In this document: piece by piece, positions 208 to 41,172 of the stretch | How positions within the stretch are numbered: position 1 is the stretch's first letter | Layout of the letters: every line of letters begins with the position of its first letter | Virus record (IMG/VR): IMGVR_UViG_3300025508_000006 | Location: 1-64,000 of that record | Origin: a virus | Reading direction: 5' to 3' (one strand) | Length of the DNA stretch: 64,000 nt | Position numbers and translations under genes: made by a program | Notes under the pieces: model-generated | What the model was told of the DNA's origin: nothing | Database searches by the model: none | Seen by the model: only the letters and a program-made list of their open reading frames with translations

Positions 208-504
208 ATGAAGTCATTTAAGACACATCTCGAAGAATCCGCCAAAGTAAAGTGGATTAAAGTTGCTGACGGATACGCGAATAAAAAGATGGTGTACAAA
301 CACGTAACTTCTGATCGTATGTATGAAATACGTTTATCTGGTGCTGATTCTATGAAATTTAATAAAGATGGCAGTCAGAAAGTGTTGCCTACAGTCTTTG
401 ATAAGCATCCAGCAACATATAGTCCAAGATATCCTGTTACCGGATATAAGAATGTTGCTACAGCGAAAGCAGAAGTTGAGAGATGGATTGCCGATCATGA
501 ATAA
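208..504 (+). CDS. hypothetical protein with capsid-targeting-like N-terminus
   Basis: Starts MKSFKTHLEE, resembling T4 internal-protein signals (MKTYQEFIAE / MKTFKEF). Confidence 0.7.
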   Translation: MKSFKTHLEESAKVKWIKVADGYANKKMVYKHVTSDRMYEIRLSGADSMKFNKDGSQKVLPTVFDKHPATYSPRYPVTGYKNVATAKAEVERWIADHE

Positions 505-1726
505 TTTTAACGAGTTCATTACAGAAGCGGCACAAAAGAACACCCATATGACTCACATCGAAGATAAGGTGATCTACGGTGGTGCTGATGGAACTCGTCA
601 AGCAATCAATGCTCTTCGTGAGTTAAGAGATATGCTTGGCGGTAAGAAAGAAGGTTCTGTATCAGTCAAGTGGGACGGTGCACCAGCAGTATTTGCCGGT
701 ACTGATCCCTCTGACGGTAAGTTCTTTGTTGCTAAGAAAGGCATCTTCAATAAGAATCCAAAGATATACAAGACTGATGCTGACATCGATGACGATACGT
801 CTGGCGATCTCAATGACAAACTAAAACTTGCATTGAAGTATTTACCTGAACTTGGTATTAAAGGAGTCATTCAAGGTGACTTTCTATACAAGCGTTCTGA
901 ATTAAAGAAGAAGAAGATCGGCACAGAATCGTATCTCACCTTTCACCCTAACACAATCGTGTATGCAGTACCCGTAAAACAATCTAAAGAACTACTTGCT
1001 TCTAAAATCGGCATTGTATGGCACACTACATATACAGGTAGTTCTTTTGAAACTATGAGCGCATCATACGGTGTTGATGTAAACAAACTGAAGAAGTCAA
1101 CTAATGTCTGGTCACAGGACGCTATCTTGCGTGATGTGTCTAATGCAACGATGACTAAAAAAGAAACGGATGAAGTAAATGAAACTCTATCACAAATTGG
1201 CAAACTTTTTAACCAAATCTCTGGAAGCACTCTTCGCGTATTATCCGCCAACCCAGGACTTGCAGGTACTATCGAAACCTTTAATAACACCTACGTTAGA
1301 CGAGGAGAAGTCATCGGAGACTCCAAAAAGCACGCCGAAAAACTCATCGCCTACATCAACCAAAAGTACCAAAAAGAAATCGACAAGCGTAGCACCGAAA
1401 AAGGCAAAGGCGCCCAAAAAGCGAAGCGCGACGAAATCCTCAAGTTCTTCAGCAAAGAAAACAAAATAAGTCTCATTAAGATGTTTGAATTGCAGAAATT
1501 GATTGTTTTAGTTAAATTAAAACTTATAAATAACCTTAATAGATTAAGTAATATTGGTGCGTTTGTTAAAACTAAGAACGGATACAAGACTACTGGTCAA
1601 GAAGGTTATGTTGCAATAGACACACTTGGTGGTGATGCGGTGAAACTAGTTGATCGTATGGAGTTTTCATACAACAACTTTTCACCTGATATATTAAAAG
1701 GATGGGATAAACCAAAGGGTAAATAA
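497..1726 (+). CDS. putative ligase-fold (RNA ligase-like) nucleotidyltransferase, DUF6267-like, with capsid-targeting-like N-terminus
   Basis: Likely start ATG 497 (MNNFNEFITE). Motifs SVKWDG (KxDG), IQGDF, EGYV and AVKLV occur in ligase order. Confidence 0.6.
   Translation: MNNFNEFITEAAQKNTHMTHIEDKVIYGGADGTRQAINALRELRDMLGGKKEGSVSVKWDGAPAVFAGTDPSDGKFFVAKKGIFNKNPKIYKTDADIDDDTSGDLNDKLKLALKYLPELGIKGVIQGDFLYKRSELKKKKIGTESYLTFHPNTIVYAVPVKQSKELLASKIGIVWHTTYTGSSFETMSASYGVDVNKLKKSTNVWSQDAILRDVSNATMTKKETDEVNETLSQIGKLFNQISGSTLRVLSANPGLAGTIETFNNTYVRRGEVIGDSKKHAEKLIAYINQKYQKEIDKRSTEKGKGAQKAKRDEILKFFSKENKISLIKMFELQKLIVLVKLKLINNLNRLSNIGAFVKTKNGYKTTGQEGYVAIDTLGGDAVKLVDRMEFSYNNFSPDILKGWDKPKGK
1179..1469 (+). 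CDS. candidate overprinted Lys/Ser/Pro/Thr-rich basic protein (+1 frame inside 497..1726)
   Basis: 96-codon ORF coinciding with a strong shift of the host gene's third positions to C/A that reverts at its stop. Confidence 0.5.
   Translation: MKLYHKLANFLTKSLEALFAYYPPTQDLQVLSKPLITPTLDEEKSSETPKSTPKNSSPTSTKSTKKKSTSVAPKKAKAPKKRSATKSSSSSAKKTK
1525..1532 (+). promoter_or_regulatory. T4-type late promoter
   Basis: TATAAATA about 200 nt upstream of ORF 1728. Confidence 0.55.
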
Positions 1727-1727
1727 G

Positions 1728-2192
1728 ATGGCAGATAAACCATTATCGTTTAAAGATTTCTTATCGGTCGACTACACTCAGACGGGTGACGGTCAATTGG
1801 CGAAGAATGCAAAGAAACGCAAAACAGATGACGTTACCGGAAACACCGGTGAAGGCACTGACGAAGCACTCGACTTTCAACAGAGACGTGCTCGTGGTCG
1901 CTCAATGAAAAAGAACAAAGCAAAGATAGCGATGGGTCGTAGACGTGCCGCTAAGAAAACTGCTAGTCAAGACGTTCTTAAAAAACGTGCCCGCAAAGGC
2001 GCGATAAGTCAACTATTCAAAAAATTCTCTAAGGGTGTATCGAAATCGGACATCCCTGCTTCACGCCGTCAAGAGATCGAGAAGCGTATCGAGAAAATGA
2101 AATCAAAAGTAGATATGATTGCTCGAAAGAACTTACCTGCTATTCGTAAATTAGAGAAAGATCGACGGTCTGGTGGTAATAAAACAAAATGA
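1728..2192 (+). CDS. highly basic hypothetical protein, possible internal head/DNA-binding protein
   Basis: Lys/Arg-rich; N-terminal LSFKDFL resembles the targeting peptide. Confidence 0.65.
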   Translation: MADKPLSFKDFLSVDYTQTGDGQLAKNAKKRKTDDVTGNTGEGTDEALDFQQRRARGRSMKKNKAKIAMGRRRAAKKTASQDVLKKRARKGAISQLFKKFSKGVSKSDIPASRRQEIEKRIEKMKSKVDMIARKNLPAIRKLEKDRRSGGNKTK

Positions 2193-3436
2193 TTCCTTCA
2201 TTTAAACAGTATCTCGTAGAAGAGAACCGTGAAGTGTTCTTCACATTCGGTCGTATGAATCCTCCTACGATCGGACACGGCAAACTACTGTCAGTACTAT
2301 CTACTAAAGCAGGCAAGAATCCCTGGTTCGCTTATGTCTCACAATCACAAAACGCAAAGAAAGATCCCTTAACCTACGATCAGAAAGTGAAGCACGTTCG
2401 CAAGATGTTTCCTAAGTTTGGTCGTAATGTAATGCTTGATAAGAAAGTACGTACAGTGTTTGATATTGCAGTGATACTATTCGATCAAGGATTCAATCGC
2501 ATTACAATGGTTGTTGGTTCTGACCGTGTAACAGAATTTAAGACTCTCCTTGACAAGTACAATGGTGAGAAAGCACGACACGGTTTCTATAACTTCGAAA
2601 AGATCATGGTTGTATCTGCGGGTGAACGTGATCCTGATGCCGAAGGTGTTGAAGGTATGTCTGCATCTAAGCAACGCGAGAATGCCAAGAACAATGATTT
2701 CACATCATTCTCTCAAGGCGTTCCTAAGACAATGAACACACGAGATGCAAAGCGTCTGTTCAATGATGTACGTGGTGGGATGGGACTCAAAGAAACAACT
2801 ACATTTAGAAACCACATTGAACTTGAATCAGTCTCAGAGACACGAGAGAAATTTGTTCAAGGCGAGTTGTTCAATCTTACTGACAAAGTTATTATCAGCG
2901 AGTCTGGTAAGACAGGATACATTCAAACTATTGGTACTAACTATGTTATCGTAGCATTAGATGAAGGTGGTATTACTCGCCAATGGATCGAATCAGTCGA
3001 GTTAGCAGAAGTTCCTACTACTCAGATGATTGACAAGATTAAATCATCTACTGTATCTAAGAAGCGATATCAGGCAGCACTCAAAATACTAAAAGATGTT
3101 GTCGCTCGTAAGAAGAAAGAAGCGAGTGGTAAACCCATGCGTCACGGTATCGAATACTACGCTGGACAAATCGCTAAACAGTATGATATCAATCCTCGAG
3201 TTCTTGCTACTATGCACGAGACTAATGTTCCTGGATGGGGAACACCAGAAGCAACTAAGAAAGCGAAGAAGTATGTCCCTGGTCAGAATGAAGCGAAGGG
3301 TGACGAAGTTGCCATAGCAAGAGATGTTATCGACCAAGAACTTCAGACAGACAAGATTAAACATGACCGTATTCTTGATCGTGCGAGACTAAACCGCGCT
3401 AGACGCAAGAATAAACTAACAAATCCAAAAGTATAA
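2189..3436 (+). CDS. HIGH-superfamily (cytidylyltransferase-like) nucleotidyltransferase with C-terminal extensions
   Basis: FTFGRMNPPTIGH, VVGSDR and SAGERDPD..GMSASK motifs; N-terminus MIPSFKQYLVEE. Confidence 0.8.
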   Translation: MIPSFKQYLVEENREVFFTFGRMNPPTIGHGKLLSVLSTKAGKNPWFAYVSQSQNAKKDPLTYDQKVKHVRKMFPKFGRNVMLDKKVRTVFDIAVILFDQGFNRITMVVGSDRVTEFKTLLDKYNGEKARHGFYNFEKIMVVSAGERDPDAEGVEGMSASKQRENAKNNDFTSFSQGVPKTMNTRDAKRLFNDVRGGMGLKETTTFRNHIELESVSETREKFVQGELFNLTDKVIISESGKTGYIQTIGTNYVIVALDEGGITRQWIESVELAEVPTTQMIDKIKSSTVSKKRYQAALKILKDVVARKKKEASGKPMRHGIEYYAGQIAKQYDINPRVLATMHETNVPGWGTPEATKKAKKYVPGQNEAKGDEVAIARDVIDQELQTDKIKHDRILDRARLNRARRKNKLTNPKV

Positions 3437-3439
3437 ATA
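3432..3439 (+). promoter_or_regulatory. T4-type late promoter
   Basis: TATAAATA immediately before ATG 3446. Confidence 0.8.
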
Positions 3440-3445
3440 GATTCT

Positions 3446-5587
3446 ATGAAAACATTTAATGCGCTATCAGAAGAAGTAACTCAAAAGCAACTCAATGATG
3501 TTGAGAAGTTTGCGGATCGTATTCTCGCCAAGTTTAATGTAGACATTGAATTTACTCGCCACTTCGCGGATCGTATGAATGATGATCGAAACAAACCCGC
3601 AGTTAGTGTTGCAGAGTTACAGCAGATATTTAAGAAGATTGCAAGAAAGAAAGCGAAGGATATAAAACAGAATCCAGACAGTGAAGCGGTCATAAAGGAT
3701 ATTCAAAAAGACTTGAACTTGCCTGTGGTTATACGTTATAATAGAAACAAAGAAGAGTTTGAGGTTACTACAAAGACTATCATGCGCAAAAAAGATTTTA
3801 AGACTAGCAGTAAAGTAATCACTACAGAGAAAACTTTGACACCTGCTGAGATAAAGAAGCGAGAAGAAATCGCTAAAGCGATCGAGAAGGATTCACCTGG
3901 TATGTCCATGGCAAAGAAGATGGCAATCGCGACCGCGACCGCGAAGCGTGTTGCTGAAGCAAAAAAGATGAAAGACGACCCTTGTTGGAAAGATCACGAG
4001 ATGGTTGGAACTAAAACAAAAAATGGTAAGACAGTACCTAACTGTGTGCCCAAAGAAGATAAAGGAATTGATATGCCCTCGGAGTCAACAAAGGAATACG
4101 GTAAGTCTCAGGCAGCGATTGCTCGTAAGCGTCAACAGGCAGCAATGCGTCCTGGTGAGATGGACAAGTTAAAGCGTCTCAAAGATATGCTCAGGAATGC
4201 TAATAATAAAGTTGGTGTTGTTAAAAAAGAATCTGTTGATGAAGCATTATCTCCATCATACAAAAACAAGTATATCGGTAAAGACAAAGCGTCCTTACAG
4301 AAGACTCGTAACTCTTTCTTGTCTCAGATTGACGATCTCATTAAGTTCAAGAAGAAGACTACCAAGGATTCCGAAGTAGTTAAACTTCAAGATTTGCTCA
4401 AGCAAGTTGACCATGCACTTAAAGGTGTTAAAGAAAGCAAGAAACCAGTATCACAGATGACTCCTGCCGAGAAGAAAGCAGATGCAGAGAGACGTAAAGA
4501 ATACAAGGCGTATCAAAAGTCAAAGCGTGAGTCAATTGAAGAAGCGGTTGAAGATTGGACAGTCACCGTTACAAAACCTGTCAACAAATTAAAGAAAGGT
4601 GCGGCACAAAAAGTTAAAGCACGTTCTGCATTTGAAGCAATTAACAAAGCAGTGAAACTATGGGGCGATCCTGCTCTTAAAGCGGCACCAATGAATTCGT
4701 TTAGTGTTACTAAAGAGTCGGTTGAACTTGAAGAGAAGATGAAAGATAAACCATACGAAAAACAAATCGGTATGGGTGATTCTCGTAGCGAAAAAGAAAT
4801 TCGTGATCAGATTAGTGGTTTGAGCGATGGCACATTAAAGAAATGGGCAAGTAAACCAGCAGGACGTTTTGGTTCTAAGATTGCTAAATTACAAGATAAA
4901 GTGATCGCTGCCGAGATGAAAAAGCGTGGTCTTAAAGAATCTGTCGAAGAAGCGAAAGAACCTTCACTAAAAAGCACAGATTATCCCAAAGGCACTTCTC
5001 AGTCTGCACAGGCATTCAAAGATAGATTCGCCAAAAAGAAGAAAGTACCTGCTCTGAAAAGCACAGATTATCCCAAAGGCACTTCAATGTCTGCAACTGC
5101 TTGGAAGAAAAAGAATGAATTTGTCGAAGCGATTATGGCCAAAGATGCTGTCGAAGAAGCAAGACAAATGAAAGACCCTAAGAAAGACTCTATGGTCACT
5201 AAGAGTGGTAAGACTATCGTAATCGACAAGTCTAAGGAATCAGAGTACCTCAAGAAAGGTTGGACTCTTGCTGAGAATGAGACTGTCGAAGAGTCTAAGA
5301 ACTTCTTTAAGTTTCGCGAGTCGTTGAACGAGAAGTATCAACACTATCATACTACATTCTCTAATGCTGTACAAACTGCTGAGAAGCAAGCAGAGAAGCA
5401 AGGTTATGAAGTCGATCAAGATGATTGGTTCAACAAGATTGCAACTGGTCCTAAGAAACCTTCTGAGGGTAAGACTAATAGTTATATCATTAAGTTGTTG
5501 AAGAATGGTAAACCTACGAAGAAGACATTAGCAATACAAGTCTTCAATATGGGTAAGAAGTACGAACTTAATATGTACATCTCATAA
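3446..5587 (+). CDS. modular Lys-rich putative internal head polyprotein
   Basis: MKTFNALSEE start; short modules separated by ESVDE/ESIEE/ESVELEE/ESVEE/ETVEE/ESLNE linkers. Confidence 0.65.
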   Translation: MKTFNALSEEVTQKQLNDVEKFADRILAKFNVDIEFTRHFADRMNDDRNKPAVSVAELQQIFKKIARKKAKDIKQNPDSEAVIKDIQKDLNLPVVIRYNRNKEEFEVTTKTIMRKKDFKTSSKVITTEKTLTPAEIKKREEIAKAIEKDSPGMSMAKKMAIATATAKRVAEAKKMKDDPCWKDHEMVGTKTKNGKTVPNCVPKEDKGIDMPSESTKEYGKSQAAIARKRQQAAMRPGEMDKLKRLKDMLRNANNKVGVVKKESVDEALSPSYKNKYIGKDKASLQKTRNSFLSQIDDLIKFKKKTTKDSEVVKLQDLLKQVDHALKGVKESKKPVSQMTPAEKKADAERRKEYKAYQKSKRESIEEAVEDWTVTVTKPVNKLKKGAAQKVKARSAFEAINKAVKLWGDPALKAAPMNSFSVTKESVELEEKMKDKPYEKQIGMGDSRSEKEIRDQISGLSDGTLKKWASKPAGRFGSKIAKLQDKVIAAEMKKRGLKESVEEAKEPSLKSTDYPKGTSQSAQAFKDRFAKKKKVPALKSTDYPKGTSMSATAWKKKNEFVEAIMAKDAVEEARQMKDPKKDSMVTKSGKTIVIDKSKESEYLKKGWTLAENETVEESKNFFKFRESLNEKYQHYHTTFSNAVQTAEKQAEKQGYEVDQDDWFNKIATGPKKPSEGKTNSYIIKLLKNGKPTKKTLAIQVFNMGKKYELNMYIS
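4969..5085 (+). repeat. intragenic direct repeat (LKSTDYPKGTS x2)
   Basis: aaaagcacagattatcccaaaggcacttc occurs twice, 87 nt apart. Confidence 0.9.
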
Positions 5588-5919
5588 TGAAAAAGTTTCG
5601 TGATTTCATAAACGAAGATTGCACCTGTGAAGAACTAGAAATCACAGAGGCGGAATATCAGGGTAAATCAGTTACACTAAATAACCCTTTTAGACTGCCT
5701 TCTGGTAATAAGAAGAAGTTTGGCGTATACGTTACCAATAAGAAAGGTAATATAGTTAAAGTTACGTTTGGTGATCCTAACATGGAGATCAAACGAGACG
5801 ACCCCGAGAGACGCAAGTCTTTCAGAGCGCGGCACAATTGTGCTGATAAAAAGGACAAAACCACTCCGGGTTACTGGAGTTGCTACCAATGGAGAGCGTC
5901 TGCGAAAGTAGATAACTAA
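5587..5919 (+). CDS. hypothetical protein with capsid-targeting-like N-terminus
   Basis: MKKFRDFINE; VTFGDP...RKSFRARHNC...GYWSC motif. Confidence 0.75.
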   Translation: MKKFRDFINEDCTCEELEITEAEYQGKSVTLNNPFRLPSGNKKKFGVYVTNKKGNIVKVTFGDPNMEIKRDDPERRKSFRARHNCADKKDKTTPGYWSCYQWRASAKVDN

Positions 5920-6243: not shown

Positions 6244-7272
6244 ATGAACCCCGAGTACATTAAAAGCATCGCCCAACTATGGCAACAAGTGCAAGAAGGC
6301 GAAAAGAAGAAATTAGATCCCGTAGATGATAAAGAGAACGATAAGAAGTTCAAGGATCGCAAAGACAAAGACATTGACAACGATGGCGATGTTGATTCAT
6401 CTGATGAGTTTTTGCACAAGAGACGTAAAGCAATCGATGATAAGATTGATGGCGGTAAGAAACCTGCTAAGGAATCTTGCGGCGATGACGATAAGAAGGT
6501 GAAGAAAGAGTCGGACGAAGATATGACTCCTTGTCCTGATTGCGAAGGTTCTACTGATAATCACAGTCCTGAATGTCCTAAAGCAGACAAAGGTAAAAAA
6601 GAAGTAGAAGAGGGCAAAGTGAAAGATCAAATGGTTGCAGATTCCGAGAAGATGTCTAAGAAAGACTTCATTAAGAAGTACGGAAAAGAAATGGCAGATG
6701 ATCTTTATGAAGCAAAGGAATATTCCTACACTGTTGTTCATGCTAAGAAAGGTAAGGTAGTAGTTACTGCCCCTACTTCATATGATGCGGCACAGAAAGC
6801 GGCAAAGCAATGGAAACTGAAGTCTACTGGTGGTGTTGATGCGTATCTTATGAAAGAATCTAATACTGTTACTCATGCTGACCACGGTTATGGTGAAATT
6901 CTGCAACGTACTGATGAAGGCGTAGATGTTATGTTTGAACATGGCGTTGAAATGGGTATGAGCGAAGCAACTCTGACATTCCTAGAGACTGTTGGCGCTA
7001 CTACACTAGCAAAGAAAGCAACTCAAGTTGCTGGCGGTGGAGAGAAGCATGGCGAAACTCAGTCTAAGGGCGAGAAAGACTTTGCTGATAAGCATGACAA
7101 AGATGATCCTAAGTTAGCGGCAGATGATTCTGCTGGACACGAAGATGCTACTAAAGCAGGACGTGCAGTTAAGTCACAGTCTGGTACTCGCGGCAACGAA
7201 CCTCGTATCGGTGACAAGACTATTGTAAATCCTGTTAAGGGTGCTGTAACTAAAACTACTGGTAAGGAATAA
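6244..7272 (+). CDS. modular charged protein with EF-hand-like loop, possible internal head polyprotein
   Basis: DIDNDGDVDSSDE, CPDC and VEE/LYE/LxE linkers; GGAG SD upstream. Confidence 0.7.
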   Translation: MNPEYIKSIAQLWQQVQEGEKKKLDPVDDKENDKKFKDRKDKDIDNDGDVDSSDEFLHKRRKAIDDKIDGGKKPAKESCGDDDKKVKKESDEDMTPCPDCEGSTDNHSPECPKADKGKKEVEEGKVKDQMVADSEKMSKKDFIKKYGKEMADDLYEAKEYSYTVVHAKKGKVVVTAPTSYDAAQKAAKQWKLKSTGGVDAYLMKESNTVTHADHGYGEILQRTDEGVDVMFEHGVEMGMSEATLTFLETVGATTLAKKATQVAGGGEKHGETQSKGEKDFADKHDKDDPKLAADDSAGHEDATKAGRAVKSQSGTRGNEPRIGDKTIVNPVKGAVTKTTGKE

Positions 7273-14426: not shown

Positions 14427-16175
14427 ATGAGAAATCTAATCGCCGCCAATTGGGGTCATGACGCCGCACTATGTTTCTGGAATGATGTTACAAAAACATT
14501 TCATACTATTGAGATAGAAAAATTAGAAGGTATAAAACACTATAGAGGTCACTATCGTAAGGACGAGGAACTAGAAATTCTCAAACGGTGTGCTAAGATA
14601 GCAGAAGAAGAGTTTGGCATACCTAATGATTATCATTGCATTATTCGTGGCAATGTATTAAATGATATTAAGATGCATCAAATAGAGACGAGCACTGGTC
14701 GTATCACAGACAATATTATTATGAATGATATGATGCTCGACCCTGATAATATTAATGCAGTATTTAATACTAAGCATATTGATGTCACATACCGTCATCA
14801 CGAAGCACATGCTTGGAATGGGTTTGCTCCTTCGGGATTTGACAAAGCAATCATACTTACTATGGATGGTGGTGGCAACGATGGGTTTACTCATTTGTTC
14901 ACTGCTGAGAATCCTGATAGACCTCTGACAAGTCGCACTAAACTACACGGAGTTCGAGCACATGGAAGGGACTATACACAAGCATGCCTATGGTCATTAT
15001 GGAGCATAATGCAAAGTACTGATTGTGGATTAGATGTTGCGGGCAAAGCAATGGGTGCATCATCATACGGTAATACAGAAAGTGATGCCTTTTCAACTGC
15101 CCAAAAACTTTATCTACGAAGTACAGAGACTTGGAAAAACTTTAGTCCAGGTAGAATGTTATACGAAAGGCATTACAATCAAACATTGAAAGACGGGACT
15201 AATAGTAAGACTAATTTTATTAGAGCGTTCAGTCCTTCGCCCGAACTATATAATCCTTATAAACTATTCGTGGACGAGACTGATTGGCAAACAGAATGTG
15301 ATTTGGCAAGAGGCATTCAAGATGCATTCGTTAAAGATGCGCTGGCATGGTTTGTAGGTATACTGAACCAACAAAAGATAAACCTAGATGACTATGACAG
15401 AAATGTGGTGTTCTCTGGTGGGTCTGCTTTAAATGTATTATTCAATGACGTGTTGCAGAAAAAGTTAAATATAAATCTATTCGTCCCACCTAATCCGGCA
15501 GACCAAGGTATACCTTACGGTATGCTTGTGCAATGGATGGTTGCGAATGAAATGAAATACTCTCGTGAAGAAACAACATACTCGGGTCAAAAGATACAAG
15601 ATTTAGATGAACTGCCGCACTATATAGATTTATATGCTGGTGAGGGAGCAACAGTCTCAGAGATAGCAAGTATTCTGAAAGACGATAAGATCATTGGATT
15701 CGTACAAGGTGGCATGGAAGTAGGTGCGAGAGCATTAGGCAATCGTTCTATACTTGCTGATCCCAAGGGCGAAGATAAGAAAGACAAAGTTAATGTAGTG
15801 AAGAGACGCGAAGCATATCGTCCGTTCGCACCAGTATGTAGACTAGAAGATGCTGAGACTTACTTCGATTCGATTCGTTATGACAATCTATCTTATATGA
15901 ATTTTGCGATAAAGACTCGTGAAGAACATATAGATAAGTTAAGAGCAGTTACTCATGTTGACGGTACAGCAAGAGTACAAACGGTCACGCGAGAACAGAA
16001 CGAAATATTATACGACTTATTAACAGAATTTGATGGTGTATTATTGAACACTTCTTTCAATGTGAAAGGATCTCCAATACTAAATACACTTAAAGAAGCA
16101 TTCTATATGCTGGACGAAACCACACTCGATCATCTGGTAGTTGTAGATGACAATCAATTAATATGGATTTTTTAA
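14427..16175 (+). CDS. second O-carbamoyltransferase (NodU/CmcH family)
   Basis: GHD, HHEAHA, DGGGND, GKAMG, GARALGNRS, RPFAP, HVDGTARVQ, NTSFN. Confidence 0.92.
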   Translation: MRNLIAANWGHDAALCFWNDVTKTFHTIEIEKLEGIKHYRGHYRKDEELEILKRCAKIAEEEFGIPNDYHCIIRGNVLNDIKMHQIETSTGRITDNIIMNDMMLDPDNINAVFNTKHIDVTYRHHEAHAWNGFAPSGFDKAIILTMDGGGNDGFTHLFTAENPDRPLTSRTKLHGVRAHGRDYTQACLWSLWSIMQSTDCGLDVAGKAMGASSYGNTESDAFSTAQKLYLRSTETWKNFSPGRMLYERHYNQTLKDGTNSKTNFIRAFSPSPELYNPYKLFVDETDWQTECDLARGIQDAFVKDALAWFVGILNQQKINLDDYDRNVVFSGGSALNVLFNDVLQKKLNINLFVPPNPADQGIPYGMLVQWMVANEMKYSREETTYSGQKIQDLDELPHYIDLYAGEGATVSEIASILKDDKIIGFVQGGMEVGARALGNRSILADPKGEDKKDKVNVVKRREAYRPFAPVCRLEDAETYFDSIRYDNLSYMNFAIKTREEHIDKLRAVTHVDGTARVQTVTREQNEILYDLLTEFDGVLLNTSFNVKGSPILNTLKEAFYMLDETTLDHLVVVDDNQLIWIF

Positions 16176-16879
16176 TGTTAAAATTTAAACAGTACATCAA
16201 TGAACAAGCAGAACTAGACCTAATCAACGAAGGCGTAAATGATCCTGCAATCTTTAAAGCAGTGTTTCTTGCTGGTGGTCCTGGTAGTGGAAAGTCATTC
16301 ATCGTTGGTAAAACTGGACTGGGTAGTTTTGGATTTCGTGTAGTCAACTCTGATGATGCATTTGAAAACGCTATGAAGAAAGCAGGCATGGAGATGAATC
16401 CAGATAACATCTTCTCTGTTAAAGGTCAAGAACTCCGTGGTAAAGCAACTAAGTTGACTGCCGCTAAACAAGAGATGTATCTTAAAGGTCGTCTCGGTAT
16501 TGTTATTGATGGTACTGGTAAAGATTCTGATAAGATTAAACAGCAACGTGCGAAACTAGAAAAGATGGGATACGATACTGCAATCATTGTAGTGAACACA
16601 AACTTAGAAACCGCTGTTGATCGTGACGCACAACGCCAACGCTCTATTGGTAAGAAGATGCTAACCCCGATGTGGCAGGCAGTGCAAGATAATATCGGAA
16701 CATACCAACAGATGTTTGGTCAAGAGAATACATTCATTGTTGATAACAGTGAAGGCAAAGACTTCAAGAAAGAAACTATGGCAGCATACAAGGGAATTGG
16801 TGCATGGTCTAAGAAACCAGTTAAAGATTCTCGTGCTAAGAAGTGGATTAAATCTGAGTTAAAAAATAAGACTAGATAA
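16175..16879 (+). CDS. P-loop kinase (zeta-toxin/polynucleotide-kinase-like) with capsid-targeting-like N-terminus
   Basis: Likely start ATG 16175 (MLKFKQYINE); GGPGSGKS, VNSDD, IVIDGT, R..R lid. Confidence 0.8.
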   Translation: MLKFKQYINEQAELDLINEGVNDPAIFKAVFLAGGPGSGKSFIVGKTGLGSFGFRVVNSDDAFENAMKKAGMEMNPDNIFSVKGQELRGKATKLTAAKQEMYLKGRLGIVIDGTGKDSDKIKQQRAKLEKMGYDTAIIVVNTNLETAVDRDAQRQRSIGKKMLTPMWQAVQDNIGTYQQMFGQENTFIVDNSEGKDFKKETMAAYKGIGAWSKKPVKDSRAKKWIKSELKNKTR

Positions 16880-41141: not shown

Positions 41142-41172
41142 TATAAATAACCTTACAGAAACTCTATTTAGT
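41142..41172. promoter_or_regulatory. opposed late promoters serving divergent genes
   Basis: TATAAATA (+, 41142-41149) for gp48; CTAAATA variant on the minus strand near 41165-41171 for gp4. Confidence 0.65.

Follow-up and report, generated by a model that had tools for sequence, protein, structure and literature searches.

In phage T4, the internal proteins IPI, IPII, IPIII and Alt follow a one-leader, one-protein loading rule: each comes from a separate gene outside the head cluster, carries basic cargo behind a short leader ending in hydrophobic-x-Glu (MKTYQEFIAE in T4), and is cut once by the phage's own protease (PMC9026906). The capsid-targeting leader spans about ten residues, with an aromatic or hydrophobic residue at positions 4 and 7, a hydrophobic residue at 8 and Glu at 10 (PMC9026906). 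But what would a whole chain of such cargo look like? A candidate lies at positions 3446-5587 of a 64,000-nucleotide stretch of viral DNA (the window), the first 64 kb of the 116-kb IMG/VR record IMGVR_UViG_3300025508_000006, whose completeness is estimated at 67%. This gene encodes a 713-residue modular protein, P0001. It resembles the T4 internal proteins in its basic cargo, its location outside the head cluster, the presence of a protease of the same family, the variation of cargo between related phages and, approximately, in its leader; unlike them, it strings together about ten modules with 9-11 predicted internal cut sites, and its joints have an extra conserved E-S, two residues upstream of the hydrophobic position of the T4 site. 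Several gp21-type sites in one chain have a precedent in T4 gp22, gp67 and gp68, which gp21 cuts into multiple fragments (PMC9026906). Compared with gp67 and gp68 on layout, not sequence, P0001 is far larger, basic rather than acidic, and has folded domains including an RNase-like one. The position of the gp67/gp68 genes upstream of gene 21 is taken by a related chain on another contig, L018, and not by P0001, whose gene is about 90 kb away.

The polyvalent proteins (Iyer et al. 2017, PMC5512222) also hold many unrelated domains in one phage polypeptide, in shuffled order, with BECR-fold RNases and HD/SpoT-like enzymes among them. They are predicted to be delivered with the DNA and to release their units by proteolysis, and the published set has no Synechococcus, Prochlorococcus, Pelagibacter or marine-phage examples (PMC5512222). 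They usually carry a zincin-like metallopeptidase (MPTase) and large domains, whereas the modules of P0001 have 13-119 residues and are proposed to be released in trans, at the linker. Several unrelated domains that are shuffled among relatives are found in P0001 as well; no peptidase domain was detected in it by Pfam, nor in six relatives scanned. In the giant phages phiKZ, 201phi2-1 and SPN3US, a prohead protease related to that of T4 cleaves, after Glu, many of the proteins that are packaged and ejected (PMC5694885, PMC7411985, PMC10052503). A literature search on polyproteins and prohead proteases (titles and abstracts, subscription journals outside its scope) returned T4, SPN3US and polyvalent-protein papers, none of which describes this architecture, and a search on DUF5824, DUF6267, DUF3008 and their Pfam numbers found no paper. 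The giant-phage head protease recognises (S/A/G)-x-E and mostly removes propeptides from separate gene products, and we know of no chains of shuffled mini-modules described in those systems. P0001 is filed as a variant, not a member, of the described classes because it lacks the MPTase of polyvalent proteins and the gene position of gp67/gp68. We propose that it is a new combination: a chain of mini-modules, released in trans by the capsid protease, in which the conserved joint is also the point of exchange.

Modules and joints of the chain

The open reading frame (ORF) is stop-free and translates to 713 amino acids (aa), and P0001 can be taken as a real gene product because full-length homologues (92%, 82% and 58% identity) exist on other viral contigs. 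As a preliminary description had it, P0001 consists of independent modules in series with a conserved peptide at the joints, which joint-bounded module exchange and motif counts support. The parts are as follows (a slash marks the proposed cut, the Glu before it is numbered, and model confidence is the predicted local distance difference test, pLDDT).

3446-5587, plus strand: modular protein P0001, 713 aa; Lys 18%; net charge +52
3446-3472, plus strand: leader MKTFNALSE, residues 1-9, resembling the T4 capsid-targeting sequence; modelled as disordered (pLDDT < 50); ends LSE9/E
3473-3829, plus strand: module 1, residues 10-128, alpha/beta, probable RegB/RelE-like (BECR) fold; pLDDT 89; ends ITTE128/K
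3830-3958, plus strand: module 2, residues 129-171, helical hairpin; ends RVAE171/A
3959-4243, plus strand: module 3, residues 172-266, two-Cys beta-hairpin (PCW...NCVP) plus helices; ends KESVDE266/A
4244-4435, plus strand: module 4, residues 267-330, two helices that homologues exchange or lack as one block; ends GVKE330/S
4436-4543, plus strand: module 5, residues 331-366, single basic helix; ends RESIEE366/A
4544-4735, plus strand: module 6, residues 367-430, small beta/alpha domain, pLDDT about 90; ends KESVELEE430/K
4736-4951, plus strand: module 7, residues 431-502, helical; ends KESVEE502/A
4952-5158, plus strand: module 8, residues 503-571, disordered (pLDDT < 50), with a duplicated LKSTDYPKGTS unit; ends DAVEE571/A
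5159-5293, plus strand: module 9, residues 572-616, beta-hairpin plus helix; ends ETVEE616/S
5294-5332, plus strand: 13-residue spacer, residues 617-629; ends FRESLNE629/K
5333-5584, plus strand: module 10, residues 630-713, 84-aa alpha/beta C-terminal domain, pLDDT about 90

All nine joints named in the preliminary description are present in the translation; LSE9/E and GVKE330/S are two added candidates. The C-terminal domain that it had picked out is real, being modelled with high confidence, and in other family members occupies N-terminal, internal or C-terminal places. Its basic segments of about 30-120 aa are indeed basic, every piece carrying a net charge of +1 to +8; their lengths run from 13 to 119 aa. 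Such uniform positive charge fits nucleic-acid binding. Module 8 contains a 55-nucleotide (nt) segment duplicated at 4954-5008 and 5041-5095, 87 nt apart and 87% identical, which encodes two peptide units LKSTDYPKGTS.SA.A and looks like a recent, internal duplication.

What sets the joints apart is their motif. Within P0001, [KR]ES[LIV].E is observed 4 times against 0.01 expected, with KESVELEE as a fifth variant, and it occurs in none of the genome's other 116 ORFs; [LIV][DEN]E[ASK] is observed 7 times against 0.61 expected. Across 263 homologues, [ED][ST]-hydrophobic-x-E is found 208 times, compared with 40.6 in shuffles. In the same set, the residue after ES[LIV]x is E in 97 cases and D in 15, at a background E:D ratio of 0.95, and in the ESVELx variant the next residue is E in 75/83 and D in 0. 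The position directly before the proposed-cut Glu varies freely among E, D and N, and Ala stands right after the proposed cut in 44%. In T4, gp21 cleaves L/I-x-E on the C-terminal side of the Glu; a Glu-Ala bond was the first to be identified, and Asp at the cut position of the capsid-targeting sequence blocks processing (PMC9026906). A fit of the joints to the T4 gp21 rule in detail is supported by these sequence comparisons, and a plain acidic spacer is unlikely because Glu is favoured over Asp at one position only. The same rule holds where modules change place. The P-loop kinase module that starts GVNDP is preceded by L/I-x-E in 13/13 distinct contexts, be it at an N-terminal leader or in mid-chain, the extremes being the leader MKFLEFLSE/ and joints that lie 900 residues along a chain. 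Module 6 has I/V/L-x-E-A directly before it in 9/9 contexts. In homologues of module 1, hydrophobic-x-E precedes the module wherever it is located, for example as the leader MKTFKEFIAE, near-identical to that of T4, or as a double joint such as ESINE/AFESIFE/E. To judge from the contexts of the kinase module and of module 1, leaders and joints are interchangeable. In the spacer at 617-629, an aromatic residue stands 6 positions ahead of the Glu, an arrangement also seen in a targeting leader.

Relatives of P0001 made up 4,682 representative clusters in an exhaustive profile search. Its parts 1-128, 170-262, 363-427, 424-507, 497-713 and 628-713 match proteins of all sizes, at any position, and other domains found in one chain with these modules in relatives are NMNAT-like, HD/SpoT-like and P-loop kinase domains and DUF5824. 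In an alignment of the close homologues (A1), module 1 is nearly invariant, and the segment 129-171 is gained or lost as a unit exactly between ITTE/ and RVAE/; P0008 and P0012 have one module more, bounded by RVAE/ and ..IATE/. From KESVDE/ to RESIEE/, the sequence is replaced, halved or deleted in homologues, and the 36-aa piece 331-366 (module 5) is relocated in P0008 and P0012. The stretch from KESVELEE/ to KESVEE/ is swapped in P0004 for an unrelated module, one that P0014 carries at another position, and module 7 is deleted in P0005 and P0007. Counting indels of at least 10 aa, 11/23 distinct boundaries are no more than 3 aa away from a predicted cut site, compared with 2.5 expected; the binomial P of about 1e-5 is approximate, owing to the relatedness of the sequences and to some boundaries that arise only because non-homologous replacements were aligned. 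Collinear homologues would have spoken against the preliminary description; what the family has instead is linker-bounded gains, losses, swaps and moves.

Is it the DNA or the peptide that is conserved at the joints? Five joints form an imperfect 17-nt repeat family, 82-88% identical. Other joints have the same peptide in different codons (GAG TCA ATT, GAG TCG GTT, GAG TCG TTG), exact DNA identity between joints reaches at most about 11 nt, and the differing codons indicate that selection acts on the peptide. The idea of joints as DNA recombination repeats alone was rejected as the sole cause since the codons differ among joints; microhomology at the joints may help recombination. Separately, 3949-3976 and 5149-5176 are 79% identical over 28 nt, and the two modules there start alike after their joints (AKKMKDDP, ARQMKDP); conservation may continue for some residues beyond the proposed cut. 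In the AlphaFold model (overall pLDDT 68.7), the modules between joints are well modelled, and pLDDT falls below 50 at residues 1-9, 112-130, 252-273, 426-445, 499-572 and 611-629, that is, at most joints.

Module 1 is 75-80% identical across many aquatic phages, and sixteen residues are invariant, including H39, R43, D46, R48, E57, K110, T111, R114 and K115, with an invariant H-x3-R pair (H39, R43) among them. Its top structural matches (VIA-align) are RelE, RegB, HigB2, YafQ and ParE at Z 5.0-5.8, modest values below the tool's clear level, with RelE at Z 5.8 and T4 RegB (2HX6) at Z 5.7 over 120 residues. A Foldseek search against BFVD matched a model annotated 'site-specific RNA endonuclease' at E 1.3e-6. 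Module 1 had no Pfam match, and a PDB sequence-profile search gave nothing real. On the strength of the modelled fold, it is a probable RegB/RelE-like RNase; T4 RegB is a free-standing early protein, whereas module 1 is embedded in chains at any position. Modules 2-10 are without known relatives. For P0001 as a whole, the Pfam scan matched no family, PHROGs gave families of unknown function only, Foldseek against PDB with the 713-aa model and with module 1 returned no significant match, and the ESM Atlas search found unnamed viral clusters only, with scores below 0.9. Megablast with the window's first 12 kb found no close cultured relative.

Protease, promoter and virion evidence

Two elements bear on processing in trans and on late expression.

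Genome 94604-95263, outside the window: gp21-family prohead protease (Peptidase_S77), PF03420 match at 94673-95101, E 3.6e-44, above the family cut-off
3432-3439, plus strand: TATAAATA, T4-type late-promoter octamer, overlapping the upstream gene's stop codon

The phage thus has the gp21 of its own that the preliminary description presupposed, and the protease gene is followed by scaffold-like and major-capsid genes. The major capsid protein has MLNE/T where the propeptide boundary is expected, in a by-eye alignment with LTE/A of T4, which we infer to be its propeptide cut site. Peptidase_S77 was found in 4/16 IMG/VR contigs with related proteins, including the only complete one; 15/16 are fragments of 12-54%. 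On the L018 contig, gp21-gp22-gp23 are directly preceded by a 732-aa chain whose joints are of the same style; it stands where the T4 core genes 67 and 68 sit, and shares the PCW two-Cys module plus its preceding joint at 78% identity. In other relatives, small genes with T4-like leaders (MKSYREFLDE, MISFKEYLIQE, MKTYKEYLGE) flank gp21. A 68-aa gene at genome 94398-94604, outside the window and overlapping the start of the protease gene, begins MRSFKEIRE/A and is a candidate small core or internal protein.

TATAAATA occurs in 17 copies genome-wide, 11/17 of them within 60 nt upstream of a start codon and nearly all of these before structural genes of the tail, baseplate or head; the copies near starts are all on the plus strand. 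It behaves as a T4-type late promoter because so many copies precede starts, mostly of structural genes, and the phage appears to use the T4 consensus unchanged. Late expression of P0001 is likely on this basis. Further copies in the window, at 41142, 49594, 52101 and 59149, lie at the start regions of baseplate, tail and head genes.

Leaders are not confined to P0001; similar ones stand on the genes at 2189, 5587 and 8847, and a P-loop kinase gene farther along has two sites in succession.

2189-3436, plus strand: NMNAT/cytidylyltransferase-like gene, leader MIPSFKQYLVE/E
5587-5919, plus strand: 110-aa gene, leader MKKFRDFINE/ and then ITE/A
16163-16879, plus strand: P-loop kinase gene, leader ..KFKQYINE/QAELDLINE/ before GVNDP

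Close homologues of P0001 fit the leader rule better than it does itself, for example with MKTFNVLLEE.

Do such proteins reach the virion? Cyanophage S-SZBM1 has the gene order of window 368-5587: a ligase-like DUF6267 gene, a cytidylyltransferase and a modular protein. Liquid chromatography-mass spectrometry (LC-MS) of virions purified in caesium chloride (CsCl) detected S-SZBM1_139, a hypothetical protein of 457 aa, with 4 peptides, and also S-SZBM1_140, a cytidylyltransferase of 362 aa, with 2 peptides (PMC9146016). The sizes of the two detected proteins match the two syntenic ORFs exactly. S-SZBM1_140 starts MRFRQFIIE/A, and S-SZBM1_139 has the two-Cys module, 45% identical over 33 aa, its homology to P0001 being limited to this one module. 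NMNAT-like proteins were also detected in virions of S-CBWM1, S-SCSM1 and S-CREM2 (PMC10665884, PMC9602691), which places homologues of the 2189-3436 product in four cyanophage virion proteomes (PMC10665884, PMC9602691, PMC9146016). Leaders or cut sites are not mentioned in the available passages of PMC9146016, PMC10665884 and PMC9602691. The S-SZBM1 virion proteome lends indirect support to packaging.

The proposed cleavage weighed against its alternatives

The explanation that we favour, with some confidence though with ample room for error, is that P0001 is a capsid-loaded polyprotein processed by the prohead protease. It would be made late, possibly from TATAAATA at 3432, and taken in by the prohead core, aided by its T4-like N-terminal leader. 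The gp21-family protease would then cleave 9-11 joints, (E-S)-V/I/L-x-E with A, S or K as the next residue, on the far side of the Glu. Some ten small products, all basic and 13-119 aa long, would be set free, the RegB/RelE-like RNase domain among them. The released pieces would stay with the packaged DNA and probably be ejected into the host. In-frame recombination at the joints could add modules, drop them or shift them elsewhere, because each module brings its own cut site. Cleavage, packaging of P0001 itself, ejection and the roles of the pieces are what we infer; the modular anatomy, the joint motif with its statistics, the module exchange, the protease gene and the modelled fold of module 1 are what we see, and virion association of the syntenic S-SZBM1 counterpart is what others have shown.

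A number of points weigh against this explanation. For P0001 and all its homologues, neither a cleavage product nor a neo-N-terminus nor packaging is on record. Regarding the sites, generic hydrophobic-x-Glu enrichment in P0001 was considered and rejected (15 observed, 13.2 in shuffles), ITTE128 is I-x-x-E and has no hydrophobic residue two before the Glu, the conserved E-S lies outside the known T4 rule, and joints 171, 330 and 366 fall in confidently modelled helices, at helix ends. The leader MKTFNALSEE has F4, L7 and E10 but Ser8, its L-S-E ends at residue 9, out of the T4 register, and a T4-like leader is present in only 30/175 distinct family N-termini; that one targeting signal serves the whole chain is a conjecture. 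TATAAATA ends only 6 nt before the ATG of P0001. Elsewhere the spacing to the start is 17-39 nt in 9/10 other copies, the remaining copy standing at 1 nt with a partner at 17 nt. A P0001 transcript from it would therefore be nearly leaderless, and for the label 'late-promoter protein' the octamer is meaningful genome-wide, though its spacing here is atypically short. The gene is also about 90 kb from the head genes and adjoins nrdAB, in surroundings of nucleotide-metabolism genes: DUF6267 (ligase-like), a cytidylyltransferase-like gene, nrdA and nrdB. Single modules occur in viruses without a gp21-type protease, among them tailed viruses of haloarchaea and a spindle-shaped virus of archaea. 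In phiM12, the homologue gp159 bears the annotation 'hypothetical protein', and it is gp157, two ORFs upstream, that is called 'virion structural protein'. As to the S-SZBM1 virions, the authors caution of possible carry-over of abundant proteins, and their data are silent on cutting (PMC9146016).

Could the chain work without being cut at all? In that case P0001 would be a multidomain protein of the polyvalent kind, packaged or not, with the acidic E-S-V-x-E peptides as flexible spacers and recombination joints, kept because short DNA repeats there favour the shuffling of modules in frame. The lack of an observed cleavage is in keeping with this, as are the three joints modelled as helical, the five-copy family of imperfect 17-nt repeats, and the fact that polyvalent proteins of the N4 virion RNA polymerase type can be packaged unprocessed (PMC5512222). 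Repeats would, however, have to account for a joint peptide that stays the same with differing codons and so little exact DNA identity, and a spacer leaves unexplained both the strict preference for Glu over Asp at one position, while the adjacent one mixes E, D and N, and why N-terminal leaders end by the same rule. We regard an uncleaved chain as unlikely, though it is the alternative to be taken most seriously.

Less probable still is that P0001 belongs to the prohead core and, comparable to gp67 and gp68, yields internal peptides when gp21 cuts it; the fragments would serve head assembly or charge neutralisation of the DNA, or be expelled, and would be neither injected effectors nor an anti-defence cassette. 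Every fragment is net basic, and for the basic charge, injected effectors and DNA-associated internal peptides are equally good readings. The anti-defence role that the preliminary description gave the modules is speculative. The multiple gp21 fragments of T4 gp22, gp67 and gp68, the L018 chain just upstream of gp21, and modules that are widely conserved rather than fast-evolving all speak for a core precursor. Set against it are the enzyme-like invariant polar residues and RegB/RelE fold of module 1, the NMNAT-like, HD and P-loop kinase enzymes to which relatives chain the same modules, unlike scaffold parts, and the distance of the P0001 gene from the head genes.

It is very improbable that P0001 is a never-packaged cytoplasmic protein of RNA or nucleotide metabolism, a RegB-like RNase with accessory nucleic-acid binders that cooperates with the ligase-like, adenylyltransferase-like and kinase products encoded nearby, and whose likeness to gp21 sites is coincidental or due to another protease: its gene does cluster with DUF6267 and the cytidylyltransferase-like gene beside nrdA and nrdB, the phiM12 homologue has no virion annotation and T4 RegB is a cytoplasmic early enzyme, but the syntenic S-SZBM1 proteins are in purified virions, NMNAT-like proteins are in four cyanophage virion proteomes, T4-like leaders stand on several genes of the cluster and the late-promoter octamer lies upstream of P0001.

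Spread of the modules and what processing would mean

The modules travel beyond P0001 and beyond T4-like phages. The Cys-rich domain of the 5587-5919 gene is the C-terminal module of the polyproteins P0114, P0130 and P0185, and its P0114 counterpart matches an ORF of a Nitrosopumilaceae spindle-shaped virus and a Flavobacterium phage, a spread far beyond T4-like phages. The two-Cys motif of module 3 (PCW..G.K.K.GK.VPNCVP; 3959-4060, residues 172-205) matches cyanophages of the S-TIM5 group and is also present in the haloarchaeal tailed viruses HRTV-4 and BLv36, all at 64-85% identity over about 30 aa, which is an unusually wide spread for something so short. About 200 C-terminal residues of the 342-aa product of 6244-7272 are fused to a P0001-like front half in homologue P0016; because of this fusion, neighbour genes and chain modules are, as far as their sequences tell, interconvertible by fusion and fission. 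The 154-aa, very Arg/Lys-rich product of 1728-2192 matches the middle of phrog_23027 (positions 223-331 of 602), whose C-terminal part (488-600) in turn aligns with module 1 of P0001. A basic stretch of similar kind is inside some relatives; this is another module found both free-standing and chained.

How general might the arrangement be? We put forward, as a tentative proposal that falls slightly short of what we would call probable, that in aquatic T4-like phages, a very large group, the capsid maturation protease doubles as a polyprotein processor for changeable plug-in cargo that is loaded, cut free and injected. Any small domain or enzyme flanked by (E-S)-V/I/L-x-E would be loaded, freed and injected in this way, and a pre-made RNase, adenylyltransferase, kinase, ligase-like enzyme and small nucleic-acid binders could act before phage gene expression. 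If the explanation by capsid loading and processing is true, it would explain the recurrence of NMNAT-like enzymes and unknown proteins in cyanophage virion proteomes, identify a virion-delivered RegB-like RNase, and reveal both a polyprotein strategy in a tailed dsDNA phage and a design rule, taken from nature, by which T4-type capsids could be loaded with several proteins. Should the joints be cut, the one-leader, one-protein loading rule of T4 would extend to whole cargo chains, and the injected parts could be read off hundreds of modular proteins that now count as 'hypothetical' in T4-like phages of the sea and of fresh water.

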